A DNA stretch of 64,000 nt from assembly GCF_028368995.1 (NCBI RefSeq), contig NZ_JAQNDL010000001.1, positions 704,001-768,000 of the forward strand. The letters run 5' to 3'. Source of the DNA: Nannocystis bainbridge (GTDB lineage: Bacteria > Myxococcota_A > Polyangia > Nannocystales > Nannocystaceae). Below, piece after piece: positions 9,306 to 59,480 of this stretch. The position numbers and the translations under genes are program-made. Positions within the stretch are counted from its first letter, which is position 1; each line of letters opens with the position of its first letter. The notes beneath the pieces were generated by a model. It was given only the letters and a program-made list of their open reading frames with translations. It was not told where the DNA came from and did not search any database.

Positions 9306-9343
9306 TGACATGACCTTTGGGCCATGCCGCATCGCGCATGTCC
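9306..9343. repeat. 14-bp-phased CATG palindrome array (3 units)
   Basis: CATG at 9309, 9323, 9337, just beyond the stop of the HTTM gene. Confidence 0.7.
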
Positions 9344-9348
9344 CAAAG

Positions 9349-10209
9349 TTAACCTCGCGCCGCGTCCGCCCGCGGAGCGACCCGGGCGACCGCCCGCTCG
9401 ACCGCCGGCGGATCGATCACCGCCAGGTACAGCAGCACCATCGTCGCCGAGAACGTGTGGACTGGCAGCAGCACGTACAGCGCCGCGTGCAGCAGCACGC
9501 CCAGCGGCAGCAGCACGCGGTGCCAGCGGGGTCGCCACACCCCGATCGCCAGCGCGAACTCCAGGGCGACGATCGACGACGCCGCGATCGCCGAGGCGAT
9601 CGTCATAGCTGTCCCGAGAGGCAGGTCCGATCCGAAATAATAAAAGCCCGCGAGCTGCTCGAGCCGCGCCCCTGACAGGAAGCCTGGCTCGCACTTGTCG
9701 ATCGCGCTCCACAGGTAGATCGCCGACAGCTGCGCCGTCATCAGCCGCAGCCCCAGCAAGGGTCCGCGCTCGTCCGGCGCGGGCGCCCCGAGCCGACTGG
9801 CCCGCGCCAGCGCTCGCCCGCGATCGATCGACAGCGACCGCCCGCACGGCGTCAGCGCGCACAGCACCGTCGCCGACATCAGCAGGAAATGGTGGTGGTG
9901 GATCCACGCCGTGCGCCCGCCCGCGGCCCCGACCCCGAAGTACATCGTCGCCACCACGATCGCCGCCGTCGCCGTGGCCGCCCGCGTCCACAGGCCGACG
10001 AACATCAGGGCCGTCGCTGTGAAGAAGCCCAGCGACAGCGCCACCATGGCCGGCCCGTCGGCGTGGACCAGCACCATGTCCTCGCCCCAGCGGGCCCACA
10101 GCAGCAGCGCGAGGCCGATCCGCACCAGCGCCATCGGTACCGTCGAGCCCTCGGCCGCGGCCCACGCGACCAGGCGGGCCCACGCGGATTCACCGGTCTT
10201 CGTGGCCAC
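9349..10209 (-). CDS. HTTM domain membrane protein (vitamin K-dependent gamma-carboxylase/SdpB-like)
   Basis: MALVRIGLA, FVGLWTR, HHHFL, PCGRSLSID, QLSAIYLWSAIDK...FLSG, multiple TM helices. Confidence 0.8.
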   Translation of the reverse strand: MATKTGESAWARLVAWAAAEGSTVPMALVRIGLALLLWARWGEDMVLVHADGPAMVALSLGFFTATALMFVGLWTRAATATAAIVVATMYFGVGAAGGRTAWIHHHHFLLMSATVLCALTPCGRSLSIDRGRALARASRLGAPAPDERGPLLGLRLMTAQLSAIYLWSAIDKCEPGFLSGARLEQLAGFYYFGSDLPLGTAMTIASAIAASSIVALEFALAIGVWRPRWHRVLLPLGVLLHAALYVLLPVHTFSATMVLLYLAVIDPPAVERAVARVAPRADAARG

Positions 10210-10654
10210 GCGGCCGCGTCCCCGGGATCTGCGGCCGCGGCGGCAGCGGCCGGCACAGGTCGTGTTCGCCGGCGTGCAGCAGCACCCAGCCGCGCATCGT
10301 GGCGATGCGGGCCCGCGCGCGCAGGTCGACCGACCCCAGGCGCGCGCACAGCTCGCCTGCCACGCGCATGAGCCCCGCCTCGCCCGTCATCGTCCGCAAC
10401 CACCGCGGCGCCGTCGCTCGCTCGCGGCCGAGCGCCGCGTAGCGATCGATCGGCGCCTCGCGCCCTTGCCCGTCGCGGACGCTGAACTCCGCGACCACCA
10501 GCCCGACACCGACCTCGTTGAACAGCTCCCAGTCGCGCACGAACCGGCTGCGCCCGCCGAACAGCTGGCGATACGCCGGGATCAGCAACAGCCCCGCCGC
10601 GACCGCGACGAACACGATCGCCCGCGCCCGCCTCGCCGTCGTCGTGGTCGCCAC
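10190..10654 (-). CDS. hypothetical partner of the HTTM protein (N-terminal TM, WxLF motif)
   Basis: GTG start, ATTTTARRARAIVFVAVAAGLLLIP...RDWELF...; overlaps the HTTM start by 20 nt. Confidence 0.65.
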   Translation of the reverse strand: MATTTTARRARAIVFVAVAAGLLLIPAYRQLFGGRSRFVRDWELFNEVGVGLVVAEFSVRDGQGREAPIDRYAALGRERATAPRWLRTMTGEAGLMRVAGELCARLGSVDLRARARIATMRGWVLLHAGEHDLCRPLPPRPQIPGTRPRGHEDR

Positions 10655-10847
10655 ACCACGACCGTAACAGATCCTCCGACCTCGCCGCGCGCTGACGGGC
10701 CTCGCACCGGCCCCATCCGCGAGCGACCGCCGCGGCTTGCAATCGCGCCTGTGCTGCGCCGCCCTCCTCGGCCCTCGCGTTGACGGCTCGCCGGACTGCT
10801 GGCCATCTCCCTCGGAGGGGCACGTGCTCGCCCCGGTCGAGACCTCT

Positions 10848-11702
10848 ATGCCGACACGTCGCTCGCCGCTCCTCGTCCCGCTGGTCCTCTTCGCCTGCAC
10901 CGATCGCCCGCTCGGCGAGACCGAAGCCAGCACCGCCGGGCCGAACACCAGCGAATCGCCGCCTGCCACCGGCACCACCGACGACCCGCCGGGCACCGCG
11001 ACCACGCCGACCTCCACCACGACGTCGCCGCTGCCGACCACCGCGACCACCGACGCGACCACGGCCACCACGATCGATCCCGGCGCCACCACGACCGTCG
11101 ATCCGAGCGCCACCACGGCCGTCGATCCCAGCACTGGCACCACCGTCGATCCCGGCGGCACGACCGTCGATCCCGGCGGCACCACCGACGATCCGCAGCC
11201 GAAGCTCGACCTCTTCGAACCGGAGCCGACCTCCGGCCTGTTCGGTTGCACCCTCGACGCTCCCGCCGGCACCATGGTCAGCGGCAGCTCGACGCTCGGC
11301 CCATTCGCCGCCCAGCGCGCCTATTTCGGCTTCGACACCCTCGGGGAGGAGCCGTACTCGCCGCGGCTCCTGTTCGTCTCGCCCGCCGCCGATCCGGCCG
11401 TCGAGGTACAGCAGCTCAATGGCAGCACCGGCCCGATCCTCCACGGCTTCGCGTGGAGCGATCCGTTCGAAAAAGGCGGCTGGATCGGCCAGTGGCCGCT
11501 CTCGGCCTACGTCTTCGCGGAGGGCATGGTGGGTGACATCGCCCGGCCCGAGACCGTAGTCATCGACGCGCGGCTCGGCAACTGGGACGCGCACGATCCC
11601 GCCGATCCGCCCCGGCTCGTCGGCAGCCTGCAGGGCGGGGTCTCCGGCCCCTTCGACGCCGTGTTCTGCGACAAGCTGGTGGCGATCATCATCCCCGAGT
11701 GA
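10848..11702 (+). CDS. Thr-rich lipoprotein
   Basis: MPTRRSPLLVPLVLFAC lipobox, TTVDP repeats, globular C-terminal domain. Confidence 0.75.
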   Translation: MPTRRSPLLVPLVLFACTDRPLGETEASTAGPNTSESPPATGTTDDPPGTATTPTSTTTSPLPTTATTDATTATTIDPGATTTVDPSATTAVDPSTGTTVDPGGTTVDPGGTTDDPQPKLDLFEPEPTSGLFGCTLDAPAGTMVSGSSTLGPFAAQRAYFGFDTLGEEPYSPRLLFVSPAADPAVEVQQLNGSTGPILHGFAWSDPFEKGGWIGQWPLSAYVFAEGMVGDIARPETVVIDARLGNWDAHDPADPPRLVGSLQGGVSGPFDAVFCDKLVAIIIPE

Positions 11703-11722
11703 GCCGCCCGCGAGCTTCGGCG

Positions 11723-11746
11723 CGACATGGTCTTCGGGACATGTCA
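11723..11746. repeat. 14-bp-phased CATG palindrome array (2 units)
   Basis: CATG at 11726 and 11740, between convergent stop codons. Confidence 0.6.
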
Positions 11747-12448
11747 GTCGAGGTCCCAGTCCCAGGAGAAGCTGGCCAGCCACTCGAGGAACCCGTCGGA
11801 CTCTCGCCGCGGATCGCTCTCGGCCGAGCAGTGAAAGATCCGCCCGGCGCCGGCCGGCGACAGATCGATGCAGCTTACGGAGTCCTCGATGCCGCCGAGC
11901 ACGAACCACTGCGCATCGAGCAGATCGGCGAGGTACCGCTGCTGCTCGCGGATGAACGCGAGCGGCCACAGGTACGGGAAATCGTCGCCTGCGCTGCCGT
12001 CGTGGCGCCGGTACCAGGCCCGCACGTCCTCGGGCAGCGTCACGCCGAGCGCCTTCTCGGTGCGCGCGATCTCCCGCGCCGAGGCGCCGTCCCGCAGCTC
12101 GACCCCGACCTCCTCGGCGCGCGCCTCGACCTCGACGAACACCTCCTCGGCCGTGCGCGGCGCGACCGGCTGCTTCGCGGCCTTCTTGCTCGCCGACTTT
12201 GCCGTCTTGCCCGCGGCCGACTTCGCCGTCTTCTTGCTCACCGACTTCGCGGTCTTCTTGCTCGCCGACTTCGCGGCCTTCTTGCTCGCCGACTTCGCCG
12301 GCTTCTTCGCCGTCTTGCCCGCGGCCGCTTTCACCGGCTTCTTCGTCCCCGGCTTCGCGGCCGTCGTGCTCGCCGACTTCGCAGTCTTCTTGCTCGCTGA
12401 CGGCGCCGAACGGGTGATCTTCCTGGCAGCGGGCTTGGTGGTCGTCAC
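11744..12448 (-). CDS. SMI1/KNR4 (SUKH) domain protein with histone-H1-like Lys/Ala N-terminus
   Basis: KKTAKSAS repeats, then GASAREIARTEKALGVTLPEDVRAWYRRHDG...CIDLSPAGAGRIF. Confidence 0.8.
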   Translation of the reverse strand: MTTTKPAARKITRSAPSASKKTAKSASTTAAKPGTKKPVKAAAGKTAKKPAKSASKKAAKSASKKTAKSVSKKTAKSAAGKTAKSASKKAAKQPVAPRTAEEVFVEVEARAEEVGVELRDGASAREIARTEKALGVTLPEDVRAWYRRHDGSAGDDFPYLWPLAFIREQQRYLADLLDAQWFVLGGIEDSVSCIDLSPAGAGRIFHCSAESDPRRESDGFLEWLASFSWDWDLD

Positions 12449-16712: not shown

Positions 16713-16728
16713 GGCGCGCTGACGAAGA

Positions 16729-16780
16729 GGACATGTCCATCTCGACATGTCCTCTCGAACATGCCGCAGAGGACATGTCC
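16729..16780. repeat. 14-bp-phased CATG palindrome array (4 units)
   Basis: CATG at 16732, 16746, 16760, 16774 (two perfect GGACATGTCC), between convergent genes. Confidence 0.9.
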
Positions 16781-16798
16781 TCTGCGACACCCGCGCGA

Positions 16799-18059: not shown

Positions 18060-18062
18060 TCG

Positions 18063-18128
18063 TCGCCTGTCCTCTCGCGCATGCCCCGACGGGCATGCCC
18101 CATGCGACATGCCCCTTCAGACATGTCC
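18063..18128. repeat. 14-bp-phased CATG palindrome array (4 units + 1 degenerate)
   Basis: CCTG at 18066; CATG at 18080, 18094, 18108, 18122; fills the gap between convergent stops. Confidence 0.88.
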
Positions 18129-18130
18129 CA

Positions 18131-19345
18131 TCAGCCCTTCGTCCGCCGCACCAGCGCCTCCGCGGCCGCCAGGCGCTGCTCCGCGTGGTCGATGTCCCCC
18201 GCGATCGCCCCGCCGCAGCCCGGGCACGTCGTCGCTTCGCGCGTCAGCAGCGCCCGGCACTCCGGCTCCGAGCAGCACGGGCGTCGCCGTCGGCCGAGCA
18301 GACGCACCACCAGGATCATCACCACGATCACTGCCACGATCCACCCCGGGTGGATCAGCGCCACGCCGATGCACGCCAGCAGCCCGACGAGCCCCATGGG
18401 CACCGCCAGCGCCGCGAGATCGGTCCGGCTGCGCCGCCACACCCGGAACACCGGGCGCCCCGCGTTCGACGGCTTGTCCGGCAGGGCCGGCGGCTCCTCC
18501 TGCTCGAGCTCGTCGTGCGTGTCGCCCAGCGCCCGCGTCAGCGTCGCCACGCTGTCGGGCGGCGGCCAGCGCTCGCGCGGCGGCAGCCCCAGCTCGCTCG
18601 CCAGCGCCGGCCGCTCGCGCTCCAGCCAGCGCAGGGCCGCGCGGAAGTAGCTGGCCTGATTGGTCTCGAGGCAGGCCAGCACCACCTCGCGGCCGGCCTC
18701 GCGCACCTTCACCTGCGCCGCCAGGGCGAAGCACAGCTCCTGCGGCGTCAGGTAGCCGATCCGCTGCACCGACCAGCTCGAGCGGAACGTGCCGTCGAAG
18801 ACCTGCTGCGAGCGGTGGCGCAGCGCCGCGTTGGCGCTCAGCACCCCGAACCCGAGGAACACCGCCGTCAGATCGGTCAGCTCCTCCTCCTCGTCGCGGT
18901 CGTCGACGCACAGCGCGTGGTGCGAGCGGAACGCGTGCGCCACCTCGTGGGCCAGCGTCGCCGTGATCCCGCCGGCGTCGTCGAGCAGCGTCAGGTCGGC
19001 GCCGAAGTGCGCCACCTCGCCCTCGATGCCCATGAACAGCCCCGCCGCGCCCTCGTGGTGCTGCGACGCCCCGATCAGTGTGGGCTCCTCGGGCGTCGGC
19101 GGTCGCCCCTCGTACAGCTCGACCTCCGCCCCCAGCTCGAGGTCCGCGTAGCGAAACAGCCGCCGGATCAGCCGCACCACCCCCGCCGCGGTGCGCGTGA
19201 AGCGGTCGGGGAAGAACTCCGGCCGCGGCAGCACGATCGGCGTGCACACGAAATGTTGCCAGTCGGCCCGCCGCAGCAGATCGGCCAGCTGCGCCAGCAG
19301 CCACGCCCGGCGCTCCTCCGCCGGCAAGGCGTCGAACTCGGACAC
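18131..19345 (-). CDS. hypothetical protein with HExxH zinc motif, two TM helices and C-terminal Cys zinc ribbon
   Basis: LAHEVAH, EELTDLTAVFLGFG, GYL; C-terminal CSEPEC...CPGC. GTG start at 19345 inferred. Confidence 0.7.
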   Translation of the reverse strand: MSEFDALPAEERRAWLLAQLADLLRRADWQHFVCTPIVLPRPEFFPDRFTRTAAGVVRLIRRLFRYADLELGAEVELYEGRPPTPEEPTLIGASQHHEGAAGLFMGIEGEVAHFGADLTLLDDAGGITATLAHEVAHAFRSHHALCVDDRDEEEELTDLTAVFLGFGVLSANAALRHRSQQVFDGTFRSSWSVQRIGYLTPQELCFALAAQVKVREAGREVVLACLETNQASYFRAALRWLERERPALASELGLPPRERWPPPDSVATLTRALGDTHDELEQEEPPALPDKPSNAGRPVFRVWRRSRTDLAALAVPMGLVGLLACIGVALIHPGWIVAVIVVMILVVRLLGRRRRPCCSEPECRALLTREATTCPGCGGAIAGDIDHAEQRLAAAEALVRRTKG

Positions 19346-20838: not shown

Positions 20839-20849
20839 GCGACCTGTCA

Positions 20850-20873
20850 CGGCATGTCCCACGGGACATGTCG
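20850..20873. repeat. 14-bp-phased CATG palindrome array (2 units)
   Basis: CATG at 20853 and 20867, behind the MFS stop. Confidence 0.7.
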
Positions 20874-20912
20874 CCTCAGGCTCGCGTCACACCATGACCA
20901 GGACGAACAGGC

Positions 20913-21024
20913 GCCTGTCCCATGAGACAGCCTCGGTTCACGTGCTCAGGATGGACAACAGCCTGTCCCATGAGACAGATTTTGCATGTCCTAGCGACGA
21001 ACACGCGCCTGTCCCATGAGACAG
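20913..21024. repeat. three copies of near-palindromic 18-mer GCCTGTCCCATGAGACAG
   Basis: Exact copies at 20913-20930, 20961-20978 and 21007-21024. Confidence 0.9.
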
Positions 21025-21039
21025 ATTCCGTTCACGTGC

Positions 21040-21859
21040 TCACGGAAGACCCCGCGCCTCGGCGATCGCGGCCCGCTCCCACGCGGCCGAGCGCGACCTC
21101 CCCTCCGCCTCGAAGAACGCCTCGATCTCCCGGACCGGGCCGTTGCGCGCCCCCGAGCGCGCGTCCTCGTAGGGCAGCGGATGCGCCCACAGGCCCGGCT
21201 CCGGCCCGAACGCATCCATCACAAGGACGCCCTCCGCGATCCGTGCCCCCCCCGACACACGCTCCGCGATCGGGACACGCTCGCCGCTGACGATGTCGAC
21301 CAGCGCGAAATCTCGCAACTCGAGCACCGGCCAACCGGGCCCGCTGCTCGGGGGCGCCATCACCTCGCGCGTGGAATTACCTCGAAAAACTTCGTCTCGT
21401 TGAGACGAAACGACGCCATCCCCACGCCCGTCAGCAGCCGCTCCCTCTCGCCGCTGGCGAGATCGACCCGCCAAAAGCTGCCTATGCCGGCTTGGTCCTG
21501 GCCGGGCAACCAGTACACCACCCGATCGCCATCGAGTTCGCGCAGGGAGAGCCCATCATTGCGCGACGTGTGCCGGTAGAAATCACGGACCTCGCCGGTC
21601 CGCGGATCCCAGAATGCCTCCACCTCGCCGGCGTCGCTCGCTCGCAAGATCCGGAACTGATCTTCAAACCAACCGCGTTGCTCGAGGTGCTCCGGCACCG
21701 CGATCGCAGCGCCCGTATCGAGCCGTGCGGCGGCCACGTAACGGTTGTCGGGGCCGACCATGGCCGCCCGTCGCGGCCCGTATGGGCTACGGACGGCGAG
21801 TTCAGTGAGCCTTCCATGTCCCAGGTCGCGCTCGTTTTCGTCCTGTCGTCGCGGACCAT
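21040..21859 (-). pseudogene. probable frameshifted remnant of a beta-propeller-like protein
   Basis: Overlapping protein-like segments in different frames (…AFWDPRTGEVR…FWRVDLASGERERL…; …LVDIVSGERVPIAERV…); composition less GC-biased than neighbours. Confidence 0.4.
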
Positions 21860-30828: not shown

Positions 30829-31818
30829 ATGCGCCCCGCGCCTCACCGCCTGACGATCGCCCTCGCGGCGCTCCTCGCGTGCGGCCCGGCCCGCGACGAG
30901 GCCCCGGCCCCGCTCCCGGTCCCGCATGCGCCCGCGGACCCGCCCGGGCCCGCCGCGCCCCTCGAAGCACCCCCCGCCTCGCGCGACGACGCTTCCGTGC
31001 ATCACCAGGCATTCGCCCGCCGCGTCCTCTACACCTGGACCACCCCGGCCCAGATCGACGCCCTGCGCCGCTCCCGACGCCTGCTGGTCGCCGACAGCGA
31101 CGTCGGCGAGCGCTCGCCCTACCTGCGCGCGCTCGACCGCCTCGCCGGCACCCACCCGCTCGCCGCGATCCTGCGCGACCACCCCGGCCATCGCCGGCGC
31201 CGTTACGCCTGGACCAGCCCGCTCGCCACCACCCTCGGCCTCGGCGAGCGCCGCTACGGCGACGCCCTGATCCGCATCGACCTCACGGACGACGCCCTCG
31301 TGGTCGGCTTCCGCCCGCACGCCGCCGAGCCGTTTGTCCTCGAGGACATGTCCGGAGAGCCAGTCGATCTCGCCGTCGCCCTCGCCGACCCCGGGCGGAT
31401 CGCCGCCGTTTATCACGTCCGCGACGGCCCCGACGACGCCGTCGCCTTCCGCGAGTACGTCGTCTGCAACGAGTCGCGGATCGCCGCCTGGTCGGTCGCC
31501 ACGCCGGAGCTCCGCGCCCGCGTCGACGCCGACATCGCCCTGCTCGAGGCGCGGCGCCGCGACCTGGCCCATCTGCCCGCCGCCGCCGTGCGCAGCCCGG
31601 CCACCGCCGTGTGGGCCACCGCGCCGGACCGCCCGACCCCGCTCGATCTCTGGCACGCCCGGCTCGCCTTCGACAACGAGCGCTACCGGCCCACGCCTGC
31701 CAACCTCGCCGCCATCATCGCCGCGCTACGCGACTACGACCCCGCCGGCGAGCCGCTGATCCACCGGCCCGATGCCGCCTTCCCCGAAGGTCAGCTCGCG
31801 TCCCAGACCGCGCGGTAG
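30829..31818 (+). CDS. hypothetical lipoprotein (possible ADP-ribosyltransferase-like fold)
   Basis: ALAALLAC lipobox; RVLYTWT, YAWTSP, YGDALIRIDL, FREYVV. Confidence 0.65.
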   Translation: MRPAPHRLTIALAALLACGPARDEAPAPLPVPHAPADPPGPAAPLEAPPASRDDASVHHQAFARRVLYTWTTPAQIDALRRSRRLLVADSDVGERSPYLRALDRLAGTHPLAAILRDHPGHRRRRYAWTSPLATTLGLGERRYGDALIRIDLTDDALVVGFRPHAAEPFVLEDMSGEPVDLAVALADPGRIAAVYHVRDGPDDAVAFREYVVCNESRIAAWSVATPELRARVDADIALLEARRRDLAHLPAAAVRSPATAVWATAPDRPTPLDLWHARLAFDNERYRPTPANLAAIIAALRDYDPAGEPLIHRPDAAFPEGQLASQTAR

Positions 31819-35635: not shown

Positions 35636-35646
35636 GCTGGCCCATC

Positions 35647-35731
35647 GGGCATGTCCGACGAGACATGTCGTAGGGGACAGGAGACCGCCGACTCGACATG
35701 GCCCTCAGAGCATGTCTCTCGAGACATGTCC
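35647..35731. repeat. 14-bp-phased CATG palindrome array (two sub-arrays)
   Basis: CATG at 35650, 35664, (CAGG 35678), then 35697, 35711, 35725; between convergent genes. Confidence 0.88.
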
Positions 35732-35757
35732 TGCGGGACACTGGCCCGCCGGCCCGC

Positions 35758-36866: not shown

Positions 36867-36890
36867 GGACATGACCATGAGACCATGCTT
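36867..36890. repeat. 14-bp-phased CATG pair
   Basis: CATG at 36870 and 36884, behind the stop at 36841 and abutting the IS3 remnant. Confidence 0.5.
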
Positions 36891-38935: not shown

Positions 38936-39093
38936 TCGGCTTCGCCGTCCCGATCGGCGCCGGCATCCAGGGCATGATCGGCGACCACTTCCTGCTCGGC
39001 TTCGAGCCGCGCGCGGTGTTCGACATGTTCTTCGGCGGCCGCGGCGTCGCCTCCTCGTTCGACGCCCGCGTCACCCTCGGCGCCAAGTTCTGA
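38930..39093 (+). pseudogene. orphan C-terminal strands of an outer-membrane beta-barrel protein
   Basis: VGVGFAVPIGAGIQGMIGDHFLLGFEPR...SFDARVTLGAKF*: alternating hydrophobic strands and terminal Phe, no N-terminal part. Confidence 0.55.
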
Positions 39094-39116: not shown

Positions 39117-39182
39117 TCACATGCCCTCGGAGACATGCCCGTTCGAACATGCTCCAATCGACATGTCCGATACGACATGTCC
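39117..39182. repeat. 14-bp-phased CATG palindrome array (5 units)
   Basis: CATG at 39120, 39134, 39148, 39162, 39176. Confidence 0.9.
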
Positions 39183-41297: not shown

Positions 41298-41388
41298 CTT
41301 GTCCAAAGGGACATGTCTCGATGGACATGTCCTTCACCACAGGTCCATCAGGACATGCCCCCATGTGCATGTCCCCAGAGACACGACC
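41295..41388. repeat. 14-bp-phased CATG palindrome array (7 units, 3 degenerate)
   Basis: CTTG 41298, CATG 41312, CATG 41326, CAGG 41340, CATG 41354, CATG 41368, CACG 41382; spans the whole gap between convergent stops. Confidence 0.9.
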
Positions 41389-45349: not shown

Positions 45350-47911
<2,562 letters not shown>

Positions 47912-47925: not shown

Positions 47926-48033
47926 CAGCATATCCCCGCGGACATGCCCGTTCGCGCATGCCTGAACGAGCATGTGCAAACGCGCATGTGCGAACGAGCA
48001 TGTCCGAACGCGCATGTCCGAACGGACATGCTG
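47926..48033. repeat. 14-bp-phased CATG palindrome array (7 units + 1 degenerate), longest in window
   Basis: CATA 47929; CATG at 47943, 47957, 47971, 47985, 47999, 48013, 48027. Confidence 0.93.
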
Positions 48034-48469: not shown

Positions 48470-49471
48470 ATGTGGGCTCTGGACAATCGCACCGGCTACG
48501 CCGCGGCCCGCAACTGGGCGCGCGACAAGGACGGGGTGCACTGGTGGATCGTCGCCGTCAAGGCCACCTTCGACGTGAGCCCGCAGGGCCGCGCCGTGCT
48601 CGCCGACGTGCAGCCCGAGCCCGTGCTCGCCCCCGAGTATTTCGGCGATCCGGGCGCCTCCAGCCTGCGTCACGACTCCGACCTGCTCGCGCCCAAGCCC
48701 GGCACCGACGTGCTGGCGATCGCCCACGCCCACGCCCCCGGCGGCCGCCCGGCGACCGCCGTCCCCGTGACCCTGCGCGTCGGCGCCCTGACCAAGCAAT
48801 TGCGGGTCCACGGCGAGCGCACCTATGATTCGCTGGGCGTCGGCCTGTCCGCGCCGGAGCCATTCTCGACAGCCCCCATTCGCTACGAATACGCCTTTGG
48901 CGGCTTCGACACCGCCGACCCCGACCCGGCCCGCCAGCGCATGGACGAGCGCAACCCGGTCGGTCGCGGCTTCGTGCGCCGCTCGCTGACCCGCGCCGGC
49001 CAGCTCGCGCACGCCATCGAATATCCCGACGGCGATCCCGCCGACGCAGGCCCGGCCGGCTTCGGCCCCGTCGATCCGTCCTGGTCGCCGCGCCGCCAGC
49101 TCGCCGGCACCTACGACGCCCGCTGGGAGCAGACCCGGCGCCCGCTGCTGCCCGCCGACTACGACCCTGAATTCGCCATGAGCGCCCCCGCCGACCAGCG
49201 CGCCGCCGGCCCCGTCCTCGGCGAGCGCGTCGAGCTGCACAACATGACCCCCGAGGGCATTCTCCGCGTCGAGGTCCCCCGCGTCGCCCTCGCCTTCACC
49301 ACCCGCTTCGGCGCGCGCCGCCAGGAGCAGCCCTCGCGGCTGACCGCCCTGATCCTCGAGCCCGAGGAGCGCCGCCTGTCGCTGGTGTGGCAGAGCTGCC
49401 TGCGCGTCGCGGCGCCCGACGCCGACTACCTCGACGTCACGGAGATCCGCGAACACCGAGGTGCCGCATGA
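48470..49471 (+). CDS. DUF2169 family T6SS effector adaptor
   Basis: MWALDNRT...WIVAVKATF, DSDLLAPKPGTDV, VHGER, IRYEYAFGG, RNPVGRGF, PAGFGP...W.PR...AGTYD..W, APADQ. Confidence 0.92.
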   Translation: MWALDNRTGYAAARNWARDKDGVHWWIVAVKATFDVSPQGRAVLADVQPEPVLAPEYFGDPGASSLRHDSDLLAPKPGTDVLAIAHAHAPGGRPATAVPVTLRVGALTKQLRVHGERTYDSLGVGLSAPEPFSTAPIRYEYAFGGFDTADPDPARQRMDERNPVGRGFVRRSLTRAGQLAHAIEYPDGDPADAGPAGFGPVDPSWSPRRQLAGTYDARWEQTRRPLLPADYDPEFAMSAPADQRAAGPVLGERVELHNMTPEGILRVEVPRVALAFTTRFGARRQEQPSRLTALILEPEERRLSLVWQSCLRVAAPDADYLDVTEIREHRGAA

Positions 49472-49745
49472 ACGCGCCGATCGCCGACGGCGAGGCCCCG
49501 TCACTGCCCGCTCCGAGATCCCGCATGAACGCGCCGCCCAGCCCTGACAGCGCGCTCGGGTCACTCGCGCCGCGAACACCAAGGTGCCGCATGTACGCGC
49601 CGCCCAGCCCTGACCGCGCGCTACCGTCACGCCTCGCCCTCGCCCCGCGAACACCGAGGTGCCGCGTGAACGCGCCGCCCAGCCCTGACCGCGCGGTCCC
49701 GTCACGCCTCGCCCTCGCCCCGCGAGGTGCCGCGTGAACGCGCGG
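49451..49745 (+). repeat. tandem amplification of the stop/start gene junction (5 copies)
   Basis: GAGGTGCCGC-(A/G)TGAACGCGC-like units with start codons at 49468, 49525, 49591, 49666, 49734. Confidence 0.85.
49468..49737 (+). CDS. 89-aa repeat-derived bridging ORF
   Basis: MNAP...RMNAPPSPD...RMYAPPSPD...RVNAPPSPD...RGAA*; ATGA overlap with DUF2169 and GTGA overlap with the next gene. Confidence 0.4.
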   Translation: MNAPIADGEAPSLPAPRSRMNAPPSPDSALGSLAPRTPRCRMYAPPSPDRALPSRLALAPRTPRCRVNAPPSPDRAVPSRLALAPRGAA

Positions 49746-50783
49746 CTCGAAGTCGTCGCCATCGGCGCGCGCACCCCCGTCGGTCACGACGCGATCAGCA
49801 GCGCCGCCGCCGTACGGGCCGGCATCGCCCGCTGCAGCGAATATCCGTTCGCCACCCCCGACGGCGCCCCCCTGGTCGCCGCCGCCGACTCGCGCATCGA
49901 CCCGCTGCTCGAGGGCAATCCCCGGCTCGTACCGCTGCTCGCCAGCGCGCTCGCCGAGGTCGCCCGCACCCTCGCCCGCGGCGCCCCGCATGCCGGCCCG
50001 CAGCACCTCCTGCTCGCCCTCCCCGAGGCTCGCCCCGGCTTCGACAAGCGCGAGGCCGCCGAGCTCCTCGGCCTCGCTCTGGCCTGCCTGCGACGCCTGG
50101 GCGTGGCTGCCGAAGCTCGGGTCGCCGGCCACGGCCACGCCGGCGCCGTCCAGGCCGTCGAGCACGCCGCCCGCATCGTCGCCGCCGATCCCGACGCCCT
50201 GTGCTGGATCGCCGGCGTCGACAGCTGGCTGCACGCCGACACTCTGTTGTGGCTGGAGGACCAGCGCCGCTGCGCCCAGCCCGGTGTGCGCAGCGGCTTC
50301 ATCCCCGGCGAGGCCGCCGGCTGCCTCGCCCTGGCCAGCCCCGAGCTGCGCCGGCGCCTGCGCCTGCCGGCCCTCGCCCTCGTGCGCGGCGCCCGGACTG
50401 CCCGCGAGGCCCACCTGCGCACCAGCGACACCGGCACCTTCGGCGAGGGCATGCGCGACGCCGTCGTCGGCGCCGCCAGTGACCTGCGCCTGCCCGACGA
50501 GCGCATCGACACCCTCTACAACGACATCAACGGCGAGCGCTACCGCAGCGAGGAATGGGGCTTCGTGGCCCTGCGCACCGCCGAGCTGTGGAAATCGCTG
50601 CAATACGACGCCCCCGCCGATCGCTGGGGCGACGTGGGCGCGGCGACGGTGCCCCTCGCCGCCATCCTCGGGGTGCAATCTTTCCGCCGCAGCTACGCCT
50701 CCGGCCCGCGGGTCATGATCACCGCCGGCTCCGACGGCGGCCTCCGCGGCGCCCTGCTCCTCCAGCGCCCCGCGGGCCCCTGA
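49734..50783 (+). CDS. thiolase/beta-ketoacyl-synthase-like T6SS accessory protein
   Basis: GARTPVG...SAAAVRAGI, AGVDSW, GFIPGEAAG, DINGERYRSEEW, GDVGAA; canonical position between DUF2169 and DUF4150. Confidence 0.85.
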   Translation: MNARLEVVAIGARTPVGHDAISSAAAVRAGIARCSEYPFATPDGAPLVAAADSRIDPLLEGNPRLVPLLASALAEVARTLARGAPHAGPQHLLLALPEARPGFDKREAAELLGLALACLRRLGVAAEARVAGHGHAGAVQAVEHAARIVAADPDALCWIAGVDSWLHADTLLWLEDQRRCAQPGVRSGFIPGEAAGCLALASPELRRRLRLPALALVRGARTAREAHLRTSDTGTFGEGMRDAVVGAASDLRLPDERIDTLYNDINGERYRSEEWGFVALRTAELWKSLQYDAPADRWGDVGAATVPLAAILGVQSFRRSYASGPRVMITAGSDGGLRGALLLQRPAGP

Positions 50784-50800
50784 GACGCCTCGAGGTCCCG

Positions 50801-51976
50801 ATGTCCAGCATCTCCGTCAACCCGCCCAAGACGCCCGTCACCACCGGCAGCAACGGCATCGCCGCCGCCACCGTGCCCAACGTGTGCAAGATGCCGGGCC
50901 CGCCCGCCCCGTTCGTCCCGACCCCGCTGCCCAACATCGCCAAGTCCGGCAACTCGCCCAAGGATTTTTCAAAGAAGGTCACCTTCGACGGCTGCAAGGT
51001 CGCCATCAAGGGCGCGACCTTCAAGTCCATCGGCGACCTCGCCAGCAAGGCCACCGGCGGCGGCATCGTCTCGGCGAACGTCGAGGGCCCGGCCCGCTTC
51101 GTCGGCCCCGGCTCGCTCGACGTCAAGGTCGAGGGCAAGAACGTCCACCTGCTCAGCGACCCGATGCTCAACAACTGCGGCCCGAGCGGCAGCCCGCCGA
51201 ACGCCGCCACGCTGCTCGGCCTGGTCCAACCGACCGGCCTCGTCGCCCTCGTCGGCGACGAACAATGCGCCCTCTGCCACAAGTCCCACGGCGACGCGGC
51301 GCGGCTCGAGGAGACCGCCGACACCAGGGCCGACGCCAGCACCTTCCAGGCCGCGGCCACGGCGGCGCGGGCGAAGAAGATCAAGGTGCGCGGGACGATG
51401 CTGGGCGTCGTCCGCTGCAAGGACGATTTCGTCTACGCCGCCAACTCGGGCGGACAGATCCCCGAGCTTCACCAGGAACTCTCGAAAGAGTGGCACACCC
51501 CCGTTCCGGAGCGGCTGTTCGCGTTCGAGTCGCTCGTCGGCGACGAACGACGCGAGCAGTTCCAGGACATGTGGAAGAACCTTGGCGAGGCGAGTCGCGC
51601 CTGGAAAGCCCGCAAGGAGCTCAAGGACGCGACGAGGACGGAGCAGCAAAAAGAGAAGGACGCGGGCGAACCCTTCTATCCGCCAGGCTCCTGCGCCGCT
51701 CAGAAAGCCGTCGTGCTGGCACTGATCCACGGTGCCCGACCCGTGGGTCTCACCGAACGCTGGTCCAGTCCCACCGGCCCGAAGTCTCGCGTGCTGGTCC
51801 ACTTCCGTTCCAGGCCAGGCGGCAGGCGAAAGCTCGGTTACTTCGGCGGGGAAGATGCCGTACCGCCCTGTGGCACCTGTCAGGTGATGCTGACGATGTT
51901 GCTTTGCCCGGACGAACGCGCTCCCAAGTGCGATCACCAATCACCCGGTTCGCAGGTCTGTCGATGCACCCCGTAG
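50801..51976 (+). CDS. DUF4150 (PAAR-like) protein with C-terminal deaminase-fold-like toxin domain
   Basis: PNVCKMPGPPAPFVPTPLPNIA...S.DVKVEGKNV..L.DPMLNN; C-terminus YAANSG...PGSCAAQK...VPPCGTCQ; codon bias drops in the C-terminal half. Confidence 0.85.
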   Translation: MSSISVNPPKTPVTTGSNGIAAATVPNVCKMPGPPAPFVPTPLPNIAKSGNSPKDFSKKVTFDGCKVAIKGATFKSIGDLASKATGGGIVSANVEGPARFVGPGSLDVKVEGKNVHLLSDPMLNNCGPSGSPPNAATLLGLVQPTGLVALVGDEQCALCHKSHGDAARLEETADTRADASTFQAAATAARAKKIKVRGTMLGVVRCKDDFVYAANSGGQIPELHQELSKEWHTPVPERLFAFESLVGDERREQFQDMWKNLGEASRAWKARKELKDATRTEQQKEKDAGEPFYPPGSCAAQKAVVLALIHGARPVGLTERWSSPTGPKSRVLVHFRSRPGGRRKLGYFGGEDAVPPCGTCQVMLTMLLCPDERAPKCDHQSPGSQVCRCTP

Positions 51977-54027: not shown

Positions 54028-54263
54028 GGCGTCCTCCACGCGGCCCAGGGTACGAGCGGCGCTCGCCGCAGCAACGCGACCACCGTGCGCGTGCCCGGGA
54101 GCCCGCAGAACCCGGCGCGCCTCGCCGCCGGCCTCACAGGCGCACGCAGCGTCGCCGCTGACCTCGGCGGGAGCCCCTCGCCGGCGCCCCCGCCGTCCTT
54201 CGCCCGCCCGAGCGCCGCTCCCGCCGGCGACGCTATCTCCTGGCGATCATCATGTGCCCTTCA

Positions 54264-54329
54264 GAACATGTCTCAAAGCACATGCCCCGAAGCCCATGCC
54301 CCGATAGACATGCCCTCACGGGCATGTCC
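54264..54329. repeat. 14-bp-phased CATG palindrome array (5 units)
   Basis: CATG at 54267, 54281, 54295, 54309, 54323, just past the stop of the P450 ending at 54336. Confidence 0.9.
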
Positions 54330-54335
54330 GAAAGT

Positions 54336-55613
54336 TCACCCGCGCACCGCCGGCACCGCCGCCGGCGTGCGGAAGAACAGGCTCGGCAGGTAGCTGCGGC
54401 GCGCTCCTTCGGCCAGGCGGAGGTTCGGCAGCGCCGCGCGCAGCGCCTGGATCGCCGCGCGGACCTCGAGCCGGGCCAGGCTCGCGCCGAGGCAGCTGTG
54501 CACGCCCCAGCCGAACCCGAGGTGGCGCGCGCCGTTCGGGCGGGTGAGGTCGAAGCGCAGCGGATCGGGGAACACGCGCGGGTCGTAGTTGGCCGCCCCG
54601 AAGAACGTCATCACCGTCGCGCCGGCCGGGATCTCCACCCCGCCCACGCTCGTCGCGCGGGTCGTGTGCCGCGGCTCCATCTGCACCGACGCATGCATGC
54701 GCAGGGTCTCCTCGATCGCAGCCTGCAGCAGCGCCGCGTCCTCCCCGACCCGCTGCCACAGCGACGGCTCGCCGAGCAGCGCGAACAGCAGCGAGCCCAT
54801 CAGGCTGGCCGACGTCTCGTAGCCCGCGAACAGCAGCACCACCAGGTGCGAGATCAGCTCCTCGGTCGACAACGCGTCCTCGCCCTCGCGCGCGCGCAGC
54901 AGCGCCGAGATCAGGTCGTCGGCCGGCTTGGCCCGGCGCTCGGCGATCAGATCGGCGTAGTAGCGCTGATAGGCGAGGAAGCCGTCGGCCGCGGTCAGCT
55001 TCGCCGCTTCATCCAGGGCGGGGTCGTACAATTTGAACCAGTCGTCTTGCCACAGCTTCAGCTGCGGCATGTCCTCGTACGGCACCCCGACCAGCGCCGC
55101 GATCACCCGCATCGGCAGCTTGAACGTGAAGTCGCGCATCATCTCGAGCTCGCCCTGCCCGCTGGCGAGCTCGGCCGCGAGCTCGCCGGCGAAGCGGCGG
55201 ATCTGCGGCTCCATCTCCGCCACCCGGTTCGGCGTGAACGCCTTCGAGAACAGCAGCCGCGCCCGCGTGTGCGACGGCGGGTCGTTGTTGAACAGCCCCG
55301 GCGGCAGCGGGAACGTACCTTGCTGCAGCCGCGCCAGCAGCTCGGGCGTGAACGGCACCACCGGCTCGAGCAGGCGCGCCGACGAGAACAGCCCCGGGTC
55401 GCGCAGCACGTGCATGACCTCCGCGTGGCTCGTCACCAGGTAGGCGAAGAACGCCTTGCTGTAGGCCACCGGCGCGCGCGCGTGGGCCTCCGCGTAGAAG
55501 CTGCGCGCCGGGTCCTCCTGGTACACCGGCGAGAACGGCTGGAACAGGTCGCCGACGGCGAGGCGCTCGGCCTCGGAAGCAGGTGAAGGGGACACGCGGG
55601 CGTCGTCGGTCAT
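54336..55613 (-). CDS. cytochrome P450
   Basis: DPPSHTRAR, AGYETS, EETLR, AANYDP, HLGFGWGVHSCLG. Confidence 0.95.
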   Translation of the reverse strand: MTDDARVSPSPASEAERLAVGDLFQPFSPVYQEDPARSFYAEAHARAPVAYSKAFFAYLVTSHAEVMHVLRDPGLFSSARLLEPVVPFTPELLARLQQGTFPLPPGLFNNDPPSHTRARLLFSKAFTPNRVAEMEPQIRRFAGELAAELASGQGELEMMRDFTFKLPMRVIAALVGVPYEDMPQLKLWQDDWFKLYDPALDEAAKLTAADGFLAYQRYYADLIAERRAKPADDLISALLRAREGEDALSTEELISHLVVLLFAGYETSASLMGSLLFALLGEPSLWQRVGEDAALLQAAIEETLRMHASVQMEPRHTTRATSVGGVEIPAGATVMTFFGAANYDPRVFPDPLRFDLTRPNGARHLGFGWGVHSCLGASLARLEVRAAIQALRAALPNLRLAEGARRSYLPSLFFRTPAAVPAVRG

Positions 55614-55751: not shown

Positions 55752-55789
55752 GCCCGTGCTCTTTCGAACATGTCCTGGAGGACATGTAC
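55752..55789. repeat. 14-bp-phased CATG array (2 units + 1 degenerate) between divergent genes
   Basis: CGTG 55755; CATG 55769, 55783. Confidence 0.65.
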
Positions 55790-55951: not shown

Positions 55952-57421
55952 ATGACGATCCCTAGCACCCGACGAGCCTTCTTGCGTGGCGGCGCGGCCG
56001 CCGTCCCCGTCCTCGCCTTCAGCCCGTCGGCCCATGCCTGGCTGGCCTGCACCGACGCAGCCGCCGACGCGATCGCGATCCCTGGCCTCGACGGCGAGCT
56101 CTTGACCGCCCCAGCCGACCGCGCCGCCGCGGCCGACGACTGGGGTCACATCGTCAGCGACATGCCGCTCGCGGTCCTCGTGCCCGCCTCGGTCGACGAC
56201 GTTCGCAAGGCCGTCAAGTTCTGCCGGAAGCACTGCATCAAGGTCGGGCCGATGAGCATGGTCGGCAACAGCCACAGCACGCAGGGTCAGTCGCAGGCCA
56301 AGTGTGGCCTCGTGATCGACATGTCGGGGCTCTCGGAGATCCACGCCGTCAACGCCACCGACGCGGTGGTCGACGCCGGTGTGCGGTGGTTCGAGCTGCT
56401 GCAGCAGACCCTGCCGCTCGGCAAGAGCCCGCCCGTGCTCACCGACCACATCGACCTCAGCGTCGGCGGCACGCTCTCGGTCGGCGGCATCGGCGGTCAG
56501 ACCCCGCAGCACGGCCTACAGGCCGACAACGCGCTCGAGCTGTGGGTCGTCACCGGCGACGGTGACCTCGAGGTGTGCTCGCCGACCAGCAACGCCACCC
56601 TCTTCAACAGCGTGCGCGGCGGCCTCGGGCAGTTCGGCATCATCGTCAAGGCGCGCGTCAAGCTGATCGCCGTCAAGCCGCTGGCGCGCCGCTACTCCGC
56701 CGTCTACGCCGACGTCGCCACCCTGCTGGCCGACCAGGTCGCGCTGATGAACGAGGGTCGGTTCGACTACGTGGAGGGCCTCGCCTTCCCGCAGCCCGAC
56801 GACAGCTACGTGCTCACGATCGAGGCCGTCAAGTACTTCGACGCCGGCTCGCCGCCGAATGACGCCGCCATGATCGCCGGCCTCCATTTCATCCCCGGCA
56901 CCGACACGGCCGAGACCCTGCCGCTTTACGACTTCTACAACCGCCTGGAGCCGATCGTCGAGTTCACCAAGTTCACCTGCGAGTGGTACCTGCCCCACCC
57001 GCTCACCGACTTCTTCCTGCCGCTCTCGGAGGCCGCCGACTTCATCGAGTCGACCCTCGCCCAGACCCCGGCCGTCGACGTCGGCTACGGCCCCGTGCTC
57101 ATCTACCCGTTCCCCAGGGCCAAGGTGACCGCGCCGTTCATCCCGCTGCCCAACGAGAAGGTGACCGTGCTGTTCTCGCTGCTGCGCTGGGCGTCCTCGG
57201 CGGACCCTGCGGTGGCGGCGGACCTGGTGGAGAAGAACCGCACGGTCTACGAGGGTGTGCGTGAAGTCGGCGGAAAGCGCTACTCGATCGGCAGCGTCGA
57301 GCTGTCGTTCGCCGACTGGATCCTCCACTTCGGCGCCCGTTGGCCGCAGTTCTTGGCACGCAAGTTGATCTTCGATCCCAAAAACACCCTGACGCCCGGC
57401 CAGGGCATCTTCCCTTGGTGA
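55952..57421 (+). CDS. Tat-exported FAD-binding oxidase, cytokinin dehydrogenase-like
   Basis: TRRAFL Tat motif; SHSTQGQSQ, LSVGGTLSVGGIGGQ, LELWVVTGDG, GGLGQFGII, PHP, GPVLIYP, FDPKNTLTPGQGIF. Confidence 0.88.
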   Translation: MTIPSTRRAFLRGGAAAVPVLAFSPSAHAWLACTDAAADAIAIPGLDGELLTAPADRAAAADDWGHIVSDMPLAVLVPASVDDVRKAVKFCRKHCIKVGPMSMVGNSHSTQGQSQAKCGLVIDMSGLSEIHAVNATDAVVDAGVRWFELLQQTLPLGKSPPVLTDHIDLSVGGTLSVGGIGGQTPQHGLQADNALELWVVTGDGDLEVCSPTSNATLFNSVRGGLGQFGIIVKARVKLIAVKPLARRYSAVYADVATLLADQVALMNEGRFDYVEGLAFPQPDDSYVLTIEAVKYFDAGSPPNDAAMIAGLHFIPGTDTAETLPLYDFYNRLEPIVEFTKFTCEWYLPHPLTDFFLPLSEAADFIESTLAQTPAVDVGYGPVLIYPFPRAKVTAPFIPLPNEKVTVLFSLLRWASSADPAVAADLVEKNRTVYEGVREVGGKRYSIGSVELSFADWILHFGARWPQFLARKLIFDPKNTLTPGQGIFPW

Positions 57422-57510
57422 TGGCGAACTCGGCGCCGCGCGCGGCCTCGCTCGCGGCGCGATTCAACGTGCACCCAACACCCTGCCGGTCCGCTATCCT
57501 GACCGCGCGC

Positions 57511-57945
57511 ATGAGCGAGTCGTTCATCCCCCGTGACGCCCGCGGCGTCATCGACACCCGTACCGAACGGCTGTGGCTTCACCCCGATGGTTACGTGATC
57601 GGCGAAGTGCGACCCGGCCTCATCGCCGACCTCGATGACGCGATCATCAACGTCGAGGCCGTGGCCAAGCTGGCCGTCGGCATTCCGCGGCCGCTGCTGC
57701 TCGACATGCGCGCCCACGCGAGCTCGGCGACCCGCGAATGTCGCGAGTACTACGCCGGCGCCGAGGCCCAGCGGGTCAACCTCGCGGTGGCGATGCTGGT
57801 GCGCTCGAACGTCAGCCGCGTGATCGGCAACTTCTTCCTCGGCCTCAACAAGACCCGCTTCCCGTTCCGCATGTTCGCCGACGTCGACGAGGCGACCGCC
57901 TGGCTGCGCAGCTTCATCGCCAAGGGCCCTGCCGAGCGGTCGTAG
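57511..57945 (+). CDS. STAS/SEC14-like (SpoIIAA-like) small protein
   Basis: PLLLDMR...REYY...AVAMLV.S.VSRVIGNFFL...P.RMF....EA.AWL. Confidence 0.75.
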   Translation: MSESFIPRDARGVIDTRTERLWLHPDGYVIGEVRPGLIADLDDAIINVEAVAKLAVGIPRPLLLDMRAHASSATRECREYYAGAEAQRVNLAVAMLVRSNVSRVIGNFFLGLNKTRFPFRMFADVDEATAWLRSFIAKGPAERS

Positions 57946-57955
57946 GGACGATCCC

Positions 57956-58339
57956 ATGGCCCAGCGAGAGATCGTCACCCGCACCGAACGGATCTGGATC
58001 GAGGACGGCATCGTGCGCTGCGTGGTGCTGGCCACGGCCACCCACACGCTTGAAGACGCCGAGGTGAACGCGCGCACCGTCGTCGAGCTGGCCGAGGGTC
58101 GCAAGCTGCCGATGCTGCTCGACACCCGGGACTCGCGCGGCCTCGACCGCGACGCGCGCCTCTTTTACGTCCGCCCCGAGGCCGCCGAGCAGGTCTCGGC
58201 GCTGGCGATGCTGATCGACTCGCAGATCGGCCGCATGTTCGGCAACTTCTACACCAACGTCCACAGGCCGCCGTTCCCGCTGCGCCTGTTCAACACCGAG
58301 AGCGACGCGGTCGCCTGGCTCAAAGCGCAGGTCGTGTGA
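57956..58339 (+). CDS. STAS/SEC14-like small protein, paralog of the previous gene
   Basis: TRTERIW, PMLLDTR, ALAMLI.S.IGRMFGNF, FPLRLF....DA.AWL. Confidence 0.75.
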   Translation: MAQREIVTRTERIWIEDGIVRCVVLATATHTLEDAEVNARTVVELAEGRKLPMLLDTRDSRGLDRDARLFYVRPEAAEQVSALAMLIDSQIGRMFGNFYTNVHRPPFPLRLFNTESDAVAWLKAQVV

Positions 58340-59445
58340 ACGATCCGTCAGGCCATCGGCCCGGGCGGGACCCCGCCGCGGAGCCACCGGACGCCCGCAT
58401 CGCCGCGCTGCTGCGGGCCGCCGCCGCGCTGGCGCCCGACGCCGCCGCGTTCGCCAGCGACCCGCGGGCCGCCGCCGAGACCGCCCTGGCCGTCGCCGCC
58501 GCCGAGCTCGCGGCCCTGCGCGCCTATCGCGAGCGGACCGAGCGGCAGATGGAGGAGCTCTTCAACACCATCACCGCCTACGCGGCGCTCGAGTACGACC
58601 GCCGCGCCGTGGTCCTCGACGACAACGACGAGCTCATCAACGCGATGGCGATCGGCCTCAACATGATGGGCGAGGAGCTGTCGCACACGATGAAGGCGCT
58701 GGTGCGCGCGCGCGACGAGGCGCTGGCCGCCAGCCGGGCCAAGAGCGCCTTCCTCGCCAACATCAGCCACGAGCTGCGCACGCCGCTGAACGCGATCATC
58801 GGCTACGCCGAGATCATCCGCGAGGACCTGGTCGAGACCGGCCAGGACGCGCTGACCCTCGACGTCGACCGCCTGCAGGTCGCCTCGCGCCACCTGCTCA
58901 ACCTCATCCAGGACGTCCTCGACCTCGCGCGCATCGAGGCCGGCCGCGTCGACGTGCGGCTCGAGACGACCGACCTGCGCACGCTGCTGCAGGAGCTGCA
59001 GACCACCCTGGCGCCCTCGGTCAAGGACGCCGGCAACGTGCTGCACGCGCGCGTGCAGGTCAGCCGCCCGCAGATCCTCACCGACCCGCTGCGGCTGCAG
59101 CAGATCCTGCTCAACATCCTCGGCAACGCCAACAAGTTCACCGTCGGCGGCGACATCACCCTCTCGGCCGGCGACCACGTCGAGCACGGCCGCGATTTCG
59201 TCGACATCACCGTCGCCGACACCGGCATCGGCATCCCCGCCGACAAGCTCGAGACCATCTTCGACGCCTTCACCCAGGTCGACGAGACCTCGACCCGCCG
59301 CTTCGGCGGCACCGGCCTCGGATTGGCCATCAGCCGCCGCCTGTGCGACCTGCTCGGCGGCTCGATCGTCGTCACCAGCGAGCTGCGCCGCGGCTCGACC
59401 TTCCGCGTGCGCCTGCCGGTCGACGGCCCCGAGCGGCACCGCTGA
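58336..59445 (+). CDS. cytoplasmic sensor histidine kinase
   Basis: AKSAFLANISHELRTPLNAIIG, QILLNILGNANKFT, DTGIGI, FTQVD, GGTGLGLAIS. Confidence 0.93.
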   Translation: MNDPSGHRPGRDPAAEPPDARIAALLRAAAALAPDAAAFASDPRAAAETALAVAAAELAALRAYRERTERQMEELFNTITAYAALEYDRRAVVLDDNDELINAMAIGLNMMGEELSHTMKALVRARDEALAASRAKSAFLANISHELRTPLNAIIGYAEIIREDLVETGQDALTLDVDRLQVASRHLLNLIQDVLDLARIEAGRVDVRLETTDLRTLLQELQTTLAPSVKDAGNVLHARVQVSRPQILTDPLRLQQILLNILGNANKFTVGGDITLSAGDHVEHGRDFVDITVADTGIGIPADKLETIFDAFTQVDETSTRRFGGTGLGLAISRRLCDLLGGSIVVTSELRRGSTFRVRLPVDGPERHR

Positions 59446-59480
59446 CCTGCTCGCCGGGACATGTCCTCGCAGACATGTCC
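59443..59480. repeat. 14-bp-phased CATG palindrome array (2 units + degenerate)
   Basis: CCTG 59446; CATG 59460, 59474; between convergent stops. Confidence 0.8.

Follow-up and report, generated by a model that had tools for sequence, protein, structure and literature searches.

Palindromes that occur in hundreds to thousands of lineage-specific, clustered copies after stop codons and between convergent genes are known as repetitive extragenic palindromic (REP) sequences and bacterial interspersed mosaic elements (BIMEs) (PMC11893778). TRIT of Mycobacterium is a genus-restricted palindrome of a GC-rich genome, mostly bidirectional and linked to stop codons, whose 147 copies, centred near −8, share a conserved sequence and structure and for which the authors suspected a binding factor (PMC3152330). 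HIP1 of cyanobacteria, which also lack Rho (PMC11347177), is an uninterrupted 8-mer, GCGATCGC, that is hyper-abundant and maintained by selection both within genes and in intergenic DNA; a role at the level of single genes is not in evidence (PMC5861425). A DNA-bound dimer can also stop RNA polymerase: LacI, CcpA, CodY and Fis at cbpA are such natural roadblocks, with release by Mfd (PMC10310618, PMC3547828). Here we describe a 14-bp dyad, TGYCC-N4-GGRCA, repeated head to tail in phased rows at gene ends of Nannocystis bainbridge, starting from a stretch of 64,000 nucleotides (the window; C1:704001-768000 of the host genome G000, which has 11.05 Mb and 71% GC).

The element resembles REP sequences, TRIT and HIP1 yet fails a defining test of each. 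A preliminary description of the window had considered a REP/BIME-like element, a suggestion that our results do not support: unlike REP/BIMEs, the dyads follow one another in a zero-gap 14-bp phase with no linkers, show weak covariation and are also under selection inside genes. Furthermore, PF01797, the REP-associated RAYT/Y1 transposase family, had no matches in G000 (90% complete; control positive in 6 of 14 genomes), and the window had no Rfam match. In contrast to TRIT, there are some 8,000 units, set in phased rows that peak at +20 to +60, with a weak structure signal, in a host without Rho; by the criterion for intrinsic terminators, hairpin plus U-tract calls are no commoner at gene ends that bear a unit (hereafter also box). 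Unlike HIP1, the dyad is interrupted, phased and stop-biased. The known roadblocks are single loci, none of them a genome-wide gene-end system, and roadblocking by rows of sites is our proposal. A literature search, with most subscription papers outside its coverage, turned up neither an account of this element nor a report that Nannocystis lacks Rho.

A phased 14-bp dyad downstream of stop codons

The window contains 224 CATG sites. Thirty-two pairs of them lie 14 bp apart, 19, 12 and 7 pairs lie at 28, 42 and 56 bp, and every remaining distance up to 80 bp is represented by 0–4 pairs; when the same number of sites was placed at random, 2,000 trials averaged 0.75 pairs at 14 bp and never exceeded 5. 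The periodicity extends to the whole genome, where 3,736, 2,073 and 1,586 pairs are spaced by 14, 28 and 42 bp, as against 62–476 at spacings outside this 14-bp series, and where 1,955 CATG chains contain at least one 14-bp step (about 2,000 arrays). The preliminary description had noticed the 14-bp spacing at 13 intergenic loci and had proposed the genome-wide count; all 13 loci were found at the coordinates it gave. The 19-bp step at 35678-35697 is likewise real, and so are decayed cores at array edges, which in our analysis read CAGG, CAGC, CATC and CCTG.

It had taken RRRCATGYYY as the repeat unit, and here our analysis differs. After the last CATG of the arrays, one further TGYCC-N4-GGRCA is kept up to its CA, beyond which the sequence has background composition. 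Because one conserved unit extends past the last CATG, the dyad must be centred on what had been regarded as the spacer, and RRRCATGYYY is the junction between two abutting units. Many edge and single units have no CATG. That the bases between cores vary freely was correct in part: the central four bases vary widely and are enriched in A/T (38–45% versus 28.5%), whereas the remaining spacer bases are constrained.

In the host genome, for which we used 8,213 uncurated gene calls from our own dicodon caller, called genes contain 1,004 exact copies of TGYCC-N4-GGRCA and the remaining sequence 1,824; the same arms with spacers of 0–3 or 5–12 instead of N4 occur 12–79 times in genes and 6–28 times outside. 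A weight matrix built from the arrays, which is circular for this genome and not for others, finds 8,188 units at a score of at least 13. Adjacent units lie 14 bp apart in 3,258 pairs and never 13, 15 or 16 bp apart. The units are not copies of one sequence, as 2,740 distinct sequences occur among 3,736 internal units, and their flanks are not shared.

Units are concentrated where genes end. Their density is 13.1 per kb in convergent gaps, 3.4 in tandem gaps, 0.83 in divergent gaps and about 0.2 in coding sequence (the last at score 14), and among gaps of at least 30 bp, units are borne by 798 of 1,318 convergent, 1,043 of 3,633 tandem and 242 of 1,504 divergent ones. Arrays with at least four cores make up half of those in convergent gaps versus 8% of those in divergent gaps. 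Density peaks 20–60 bp past the stop codon and decays with distance; since this peak is kept even in gaps of 250–800 bp, it reflects more than available free space. Units are scarce at low GC: regions of up to 70% GC average 1–6 units per 20 kb, versus 13–19 above 71%. As for the window, 12 of the 13 loci had been placed within about 30 bp of a stop codon, whereas our gene calls support 11: the locus at 39120 lies 27 bp past a stop only if the open reading frame (ORF) ending at 39093 is real, the stop from our own caller being 141 bp off, and the locus at 55769 lies between divergent genes for a P450 and an FAD oxidase. The earlier estimate that about half the loci are convergent agrees with 8 of 13 by our calls.

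Selection, range and the form in which the unit acts

We compared orthologues, which are 87–89% identical, in a 340-kb sample drawn from three congeners. A box at a host gene end was also present in 36 of 52 orthologues, and boxes were gained at 10 of 146 box-free ends; in the orthologous arrays displayed as examples, the phase was kept and the spacers had changed. A fourth, more distant genome kept the box at one of five gene ends. Inside genes, 21 of 24 four-fold sites with A or T in unit arms had kept A/T, versus 479 of 1,327 such sites elsewhere. By these comparisons, the units are under selection both at gene ends and inside genes.

Such turnover bears on whether the rows are selfish repeats, or repeats derived from multicopy single-stranded DNA (msDNA, such as Ne160 and Ne144), that lengthen by slippage, in the manner of REP/RAYT, Ssn/SRM or the msDNA-like repeats of N. 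exedens. Adjacent units are slightly more alike than chance (4.65 versus 4.19 of 10 positions), recent near-perfect tandems account for a few of the arrays, units precede three xis-integrase modules of the host genome and integrases of the genus g264, and Retron-Nex1 has repeated msr-msd copies (PMC6868368); the msDNA-like repeats of N. exedens (PMC6868368) could overlap the element. We nevertheless regard this origin as very improbable, given the missing Y1 transposase, the diversity of units and flanks, and the orthologous positions that are kept while sequence turns over. Nor is there a unit upstream of the retron-type reverse transcriptase gene of the host (C1:2369264-2370817; best score 7.3), where inverted repeats bracket an msr-msd-like region. 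A GIY-YIG scan for an Ssn/SRM nuclease returned zero GIY-YIG proteins of any kind, the motif used being too insensitive. Three near-identical group II intron-like reverse transcriptases are found elsewhere in the genome. At the edge of a 150-kb box-poor island, an ORF runs from an excisionase-like helix-turn-helix in frame into a tyrosine integrase (C1:1097383-1098840), and two units lie directly over its possible start codon.

The element is confined to three genera, comprising 23 of 73 Nannocystaceae genomes. MTGTCY-N4-RGACAK occurs 128–2,824 times in all 11 genomes of the host genus (g1), 150–289 times in all five of g264 and 103–1,048 times in all seven of g265, and 0–12 times in each of the other 50 family genomes. 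Triple-CATG patterns number at most 12 in any of 400 other genomes of the phylum versus 1,670 in the host. The survey of relatives that had been called for also bears out the gene-end bias: in G428, a genome of the sister genus g265 outside the set used to build the matrix, densities were 2.78 per kb in convergent gaps, 0.71 in tandem gaps, 0.23 in divergent gaps and 0.05 in coding sequence (300 kb sampled), the same order as in the host. A phage collection held one chance-like double-unit match.

Is the unit read as DNA or as RNA? A string of 5-bp hairpins could protect 3′ ends or pause polymerase, in the manner of REP or TRIT, and each unit can indeed form a small stem with a 4-nt loop, TTCG and CGAA loops being common. 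Watson–Crick pairing is in slight excess (observed/expected 0.484/0.433, 0.630/0.595 and 0.569/0.564), 185 real three-unit arrays fold 0.5–0.7 kcal/mol below shuffled ones, and T·G retains a residual excess over C·A in the transcribed orientation (223 versus 142). Against this, the mutual information (MI) of paired positions is at most 0.017 bits, with none at the innermost pair, and loops have no strand preference (19 versus 14). The T·G over C·A asymmetry tracks the replication strand and flips with it (150:23 leading, 73:119 lagging), and hairpins have no need for zero-gap phasing. We therefore judge a primary action in RNA to be improbable, although the units may have a minor RNA role. Because pairing covariation is weak, a double-stranded DNA site is favoured, and the unit is very probably a protein-binding site of this kind. 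The earlier idea of sites for a dimeric protein thus gains inferential support from the exact 14-bp step, the turnover of spacers with phase kept and the weak covariation.

A further possibility is that the dyads mark self-DNA, for uptake, recombination or methylation-dependent recognition in the manner of DUS or HIP1, and were secondarily co-opted at gene ends. This would fit thousands of copies in and between genes and their scarcity in foreign-looking islands; a crude motif scan also found two ComEA-like genes, and a D12 adenine methyltransferase is present. We consider it quite improbable, however, because an uptake tag would not be expected to show exact phasing of abutting units or a 16-fold preference for convergent over divergent gaps, and because 69 of 73 family genomes have the methyltransferase irrespective of the motif. 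The latter also leaves little support for a methylation-read array, another of the initial suggestions: the enzyme, the only one of the D12 class, is single-copy and family-wide, motif-free genera included, many units lack CATG, and we dropped it as an explanation.

Transcription without Rho and a candidate reader

The Rho model TIGR00767 gave no match above cut-off in any of the 73 family genomes. Three of the best weak matches were checked and proved to be FliI/SctN, and six Rho proteins of the phylum, searched against the host genome, found matches of only 22–24% at best. In a sample of the phylum, Rho is present in 5 of 38 genomes of the same class versus 151 of 162 others; many of the Rho-less Nannocystaceae and same-class genomes are large and GC-rich. 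Haliangium ochraceum was the sole Rho-less myxobacterium among 12 in a published survey, in which Rho-less clades are rich in intrinsic terminators, on which the described Rho-less bacteria mostly rely (PMC11347177). In the host, terminator-like hairpin-plus-U calls were made at 407 of 6,015 gene ends (6.8%) versus 4.9% of 1,127 control stretches, so that canonical terminators are near chance level. Since Rho is missing and canonical terminators are rare, a role of the rows in termination gains context.

We propose that an abundant, two-fold symmetric protein would bind the 14-bp dyad as double-stranded DNA, and that head-to-tail rows would have been recruited to gene ends as orientation-independent barriers to RNA polymerase, in the setting of a GC-rich genome with no Rho and few intrinsic terminators. 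A polymerase with a trailing ribosome would pass the barrier, which would account for the toleration of single units inside genes; untranslated read-through and antisense transcription would stall and then be released, probably by Mfd, which is present in the host. Fis is among the natural roadblocks, Mfd is the main releaser at a LacI roadblock, and a push from the ribosome can rescue polymerase (PMC10310618), while Fis insulates cbpA from a distal promoter (PMC3547828). We hold it to be plausible, if not quite probable, that the rows are protein-bound two-way barriers to untranslated transcription.

Several observations sit uneasily with such barriers. The first unit of a row frequently overlaps the stop codon or lies directly next to it, with peaks at −3 and +2, which speaks against a hard block because the message would be truncated unless translation rescues the polymerase. 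Boxes and hairpin terminators are not mutually exclusive (odds ratios 1.0 and 1.1), and the rRNA operons of the host end in an ordinary terminator. The 50 family genomes without the motif all lack Rho as well, as do 33 of 38 genomes of the same class, and no comparable gene-end word was found in samples of 140–280 kb from three motif-free genera; Rho loss therefore does not require such a signal. Conversely, the genome G230, which has Rho, carries 945 unphased copies of a second palindrome, TGTGTACACA, at 2.4 per kb in convergent gaps versus 0.2 in genes (200 kb sampled; regions L307-L316). This palindrome has 114 copies in G503 and 0–4 in the other 119 genomes of family f2 that were searched; no expansion of the Fis-like family discussed below stands behind it, the 2–3 weak matches in G230 being mostly long proteins. 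Finally, in the low-copy sister genera, triple sites among the matches listed (n=35) fall in 15 divergent, 13 tandem and 3 convergent gaps, which suggests an older promoter role in low-copy genomes. As a separate observation, several short convergent gaps in G457, of the motif-free genus g269 (L139-L142, L297-L306), are rich in GATCG words, which do not reach significance as a gene-end word over the 280 kb sampled.

Alternatively, the rows could be docking sites for a nucleoid or topology protein, Fis-like or other, that bends or loops DNA or deals with positive supercoils between convergent genes and ends no transcription. Sites are spread chromosome-wide, are under selection within genes, reach their highest density between convergent genes and are scarce in low-GC islands; the A/T-rich central bases depend strongly on their neighbours (MI 0.16–0.25), as in shape readout, and a function in chromosome structure has been argued for HIP1 (PMC5861425). 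The peak 20–60 bp past stops in long tandem and convergent gaps alike is not what a purely architectural role would predict, and we regard such a role as rather doubtful.

Under the barrier proposal, the candidate reader is a stand-alone Fis-family protein of 60–80 amino acids (66 in the candidate itself; host locus C1:1320087-1320287), which has multiplied in the same three genera. It surfaced through codon-adaptation ranking combined with paralogue families and is among the most codon-adapted small proteins of the host. Like the DNA-binding domains of E. coli Fis and NtrC4/Nlh2, it matches PF02954, and the closest folds to its model are 2M8G, Fis and 4FTH (TM about 0.6, none below an E value of 0.001); unlike them, it is only 60–80 amino acids long, Nannocystaceae-specific and multi-copy. 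All 23 motif genomes have 3–14 copies, whereas of the 50 motif-free family genomes 45 have one, two have none and three of the genus g268 have 2, 2 and 3. A profile that included outgroup copies gave identical counts where both profiles were run, and detected the family in 24 of 24 family genomes and in 0 of 136 other genomes of the class. Within the 23 motif genomes, copy number and motif count correlate with a Spearman coefficient of 0.59, the genomes being kin and not independent. The recognition helix GITRHALKRR is at least 90% conserved (38 sequences), as expected if duplication served to raise the dose of one protein, and the duplicates of g1 and g265 fall into separate clades of a weakly resolved tree. 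A further copy follows directly after a RecT-like gene on an IMG/VR phage contig (L330:3841-4096).

That this protein reads the 14-bp unit is possible but doubtful, and part of the evidence runs counter to it. The match in copy number derives from one clade and represents one to three events, not 73; five protein families were profiled across the 73 genomes, and any clade-specific expansion would fit. Sites of the Fis family have a G-N13-C geometry, compared with G-N10-C in the 14-bp unit. A 17-bp dyad with the former geometry, TGATCY-N5-RGATCA, is present upstream of 13 of the 30 Fis-like genes examined, and it could be the real target of the Fis-like protein, being closer to Fis geometry than the unit is. 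At about 20 host promoters, many apparently leaderless, the 17-bp dyad lies about 23 nt before a −10-like element (upstream regions at C2:671178-672404, C4:32440-33078, C2:2988728, C1:1913456 and C5:53556). Among them are the promoters of recA, of several Fis-like genes and of an endonuclease III-like and an exonuclease-like gene. By its gene content, the set looks like an activator regulon for DNA damage.

Other readers were considered and set aside. A 5-N4-5 box suggests LexA, but no unit lies upstream of lexA in the host; the box there is a direct repeat that we take to resemble the Myxococcus LexA consensus, and a unit precedes one of the two recA genes. PadR proteins bind ATGT-N8-ACAT, and PF03551 had no matches in the host (control 14/14). 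Among ribbon-helix-helix families we covered PF01402 (RHH_1) alone, with matches in none of G000, 1 of 10 other g1, 2 of 5 g264 and 0 of 7 g265 genomes. Small winged-helix regulators of a WTFL type have 3–4 abutting 14-bp TG-N10-CA dyads at their own divergent promoters in g256, g257 and one g265 genome (L102-L106, L196/L199; host loci at C2:2427363 and C2:2694575). These predicted operators indicate that abutting 14-bp dyads with CATG junctions may serve as ordinary operators in the family. The WTFL family itself, which we keep as a minor candidate, prefers TGA..TCA, is common in motif-free genera (8 of 8 genomes of g256, 6 of 11 of g269) and has no unit at its g1 promoters. A nucleoid protein in which a basic linker joins a helical N-terminal part to a C-terminal winged helix, a layout that we presume to be Rok-like, was rejected as 69 of 73 family genomes have it and its largest expansion is in the motif-free genus g269. 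It is highly codon-adapted, and two of its copies lie in box-poor islands (C2:1707006-1707575, C3:1107326-1107877, C1:1867104 and C2:756542 in the host). The 65-amino-acid protein at C1:1377114-1377311 is a putative bacterial histone.

Arrays in the window and their meaning

The longest row in the window comprises seven abutting units past the stop of a LonB-like protease gene (47931-48030); downstream of it, DUF2169 and PAAR-like genes form a type VI secretion-associated cluster (48470-51976). Rows fill several convergent gaps: five abutting units between a glycogen-debranching-type gene and an OsmC gene (16720-16789), six past a flavin halogenase gene (41300-41383) and two past a histidine kinase gene (59460-59489). 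Another convergent gap holds five abutting units (18068-18137), and at 35638-35740 two three-unit sub-arrays (35638-35679 and 35699-35740) each adjoin one stop of a convergent pair. Six units between two minus-strand P450 genes reach the stop of the upstream gene (54255-54338), and four units (39122-39177, within 39120-39179) occupy a tandem gap whose upstream stop is uncertain (38977 or 39093). At 9309-9352, two scored units (9311-9338) are joined by a weak third that overlaps the stop of a minus-strand HTTM-domain gene.

Single units with the same placement occur at 11726-11743, where the unit (11728-11741) has CATG on both sides and touches the stop of a SMI1/KNR4 gene in a convergent gap, and at 36870-36887, where it (36872-36885) lies 27 bp past a stop. 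A strong unit past the stop of an MFS transporter gene (20855-20868) is accompanied by three unphased copies at 20916, 20964 and 21010 (20853-21023 overall); here a local 46–48 bp repeat (20905-21045) carries three copies of one unit that are not in 14-bp phase. The exception to the gene-end rule is a pair of units in a divergent, promoter-containing gap (55757-55786). Two abutting units within a called gene (31335-31362) had been overlooked in the preliminary description, and further single units lie at 6695, 7590, 15044, 19733, 32870, 33907, 39869, 40976 and 62994.

Taken as a whole, the fullest version of our proposal is unlikely as it stands: after the loss of Rho, three genera would have expanded an operator once bound by a small Fis-like protein into a termination system that is encoded in the DNA of the whole genome, in which phased rows of protein-bound sites stop untranslated polymerase both ways, single sites within genes damp antisense transcription, and the reader gene has multiplied up to 14-fold. 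A GC-rich clade with neither Rho nor many intrinsic terminators raises the question of how transcription ends, and if the arrays are a termination system, they may represent an undescribed way of marking gene ends. Even if their role were architectural, the dyads would belong to the small number of hyper-abundant palindromes in bacteria for which a candidate reader can be named. Either way, the finding has a bearing on the expression of Nannocystis natural-product genes in other hosts.

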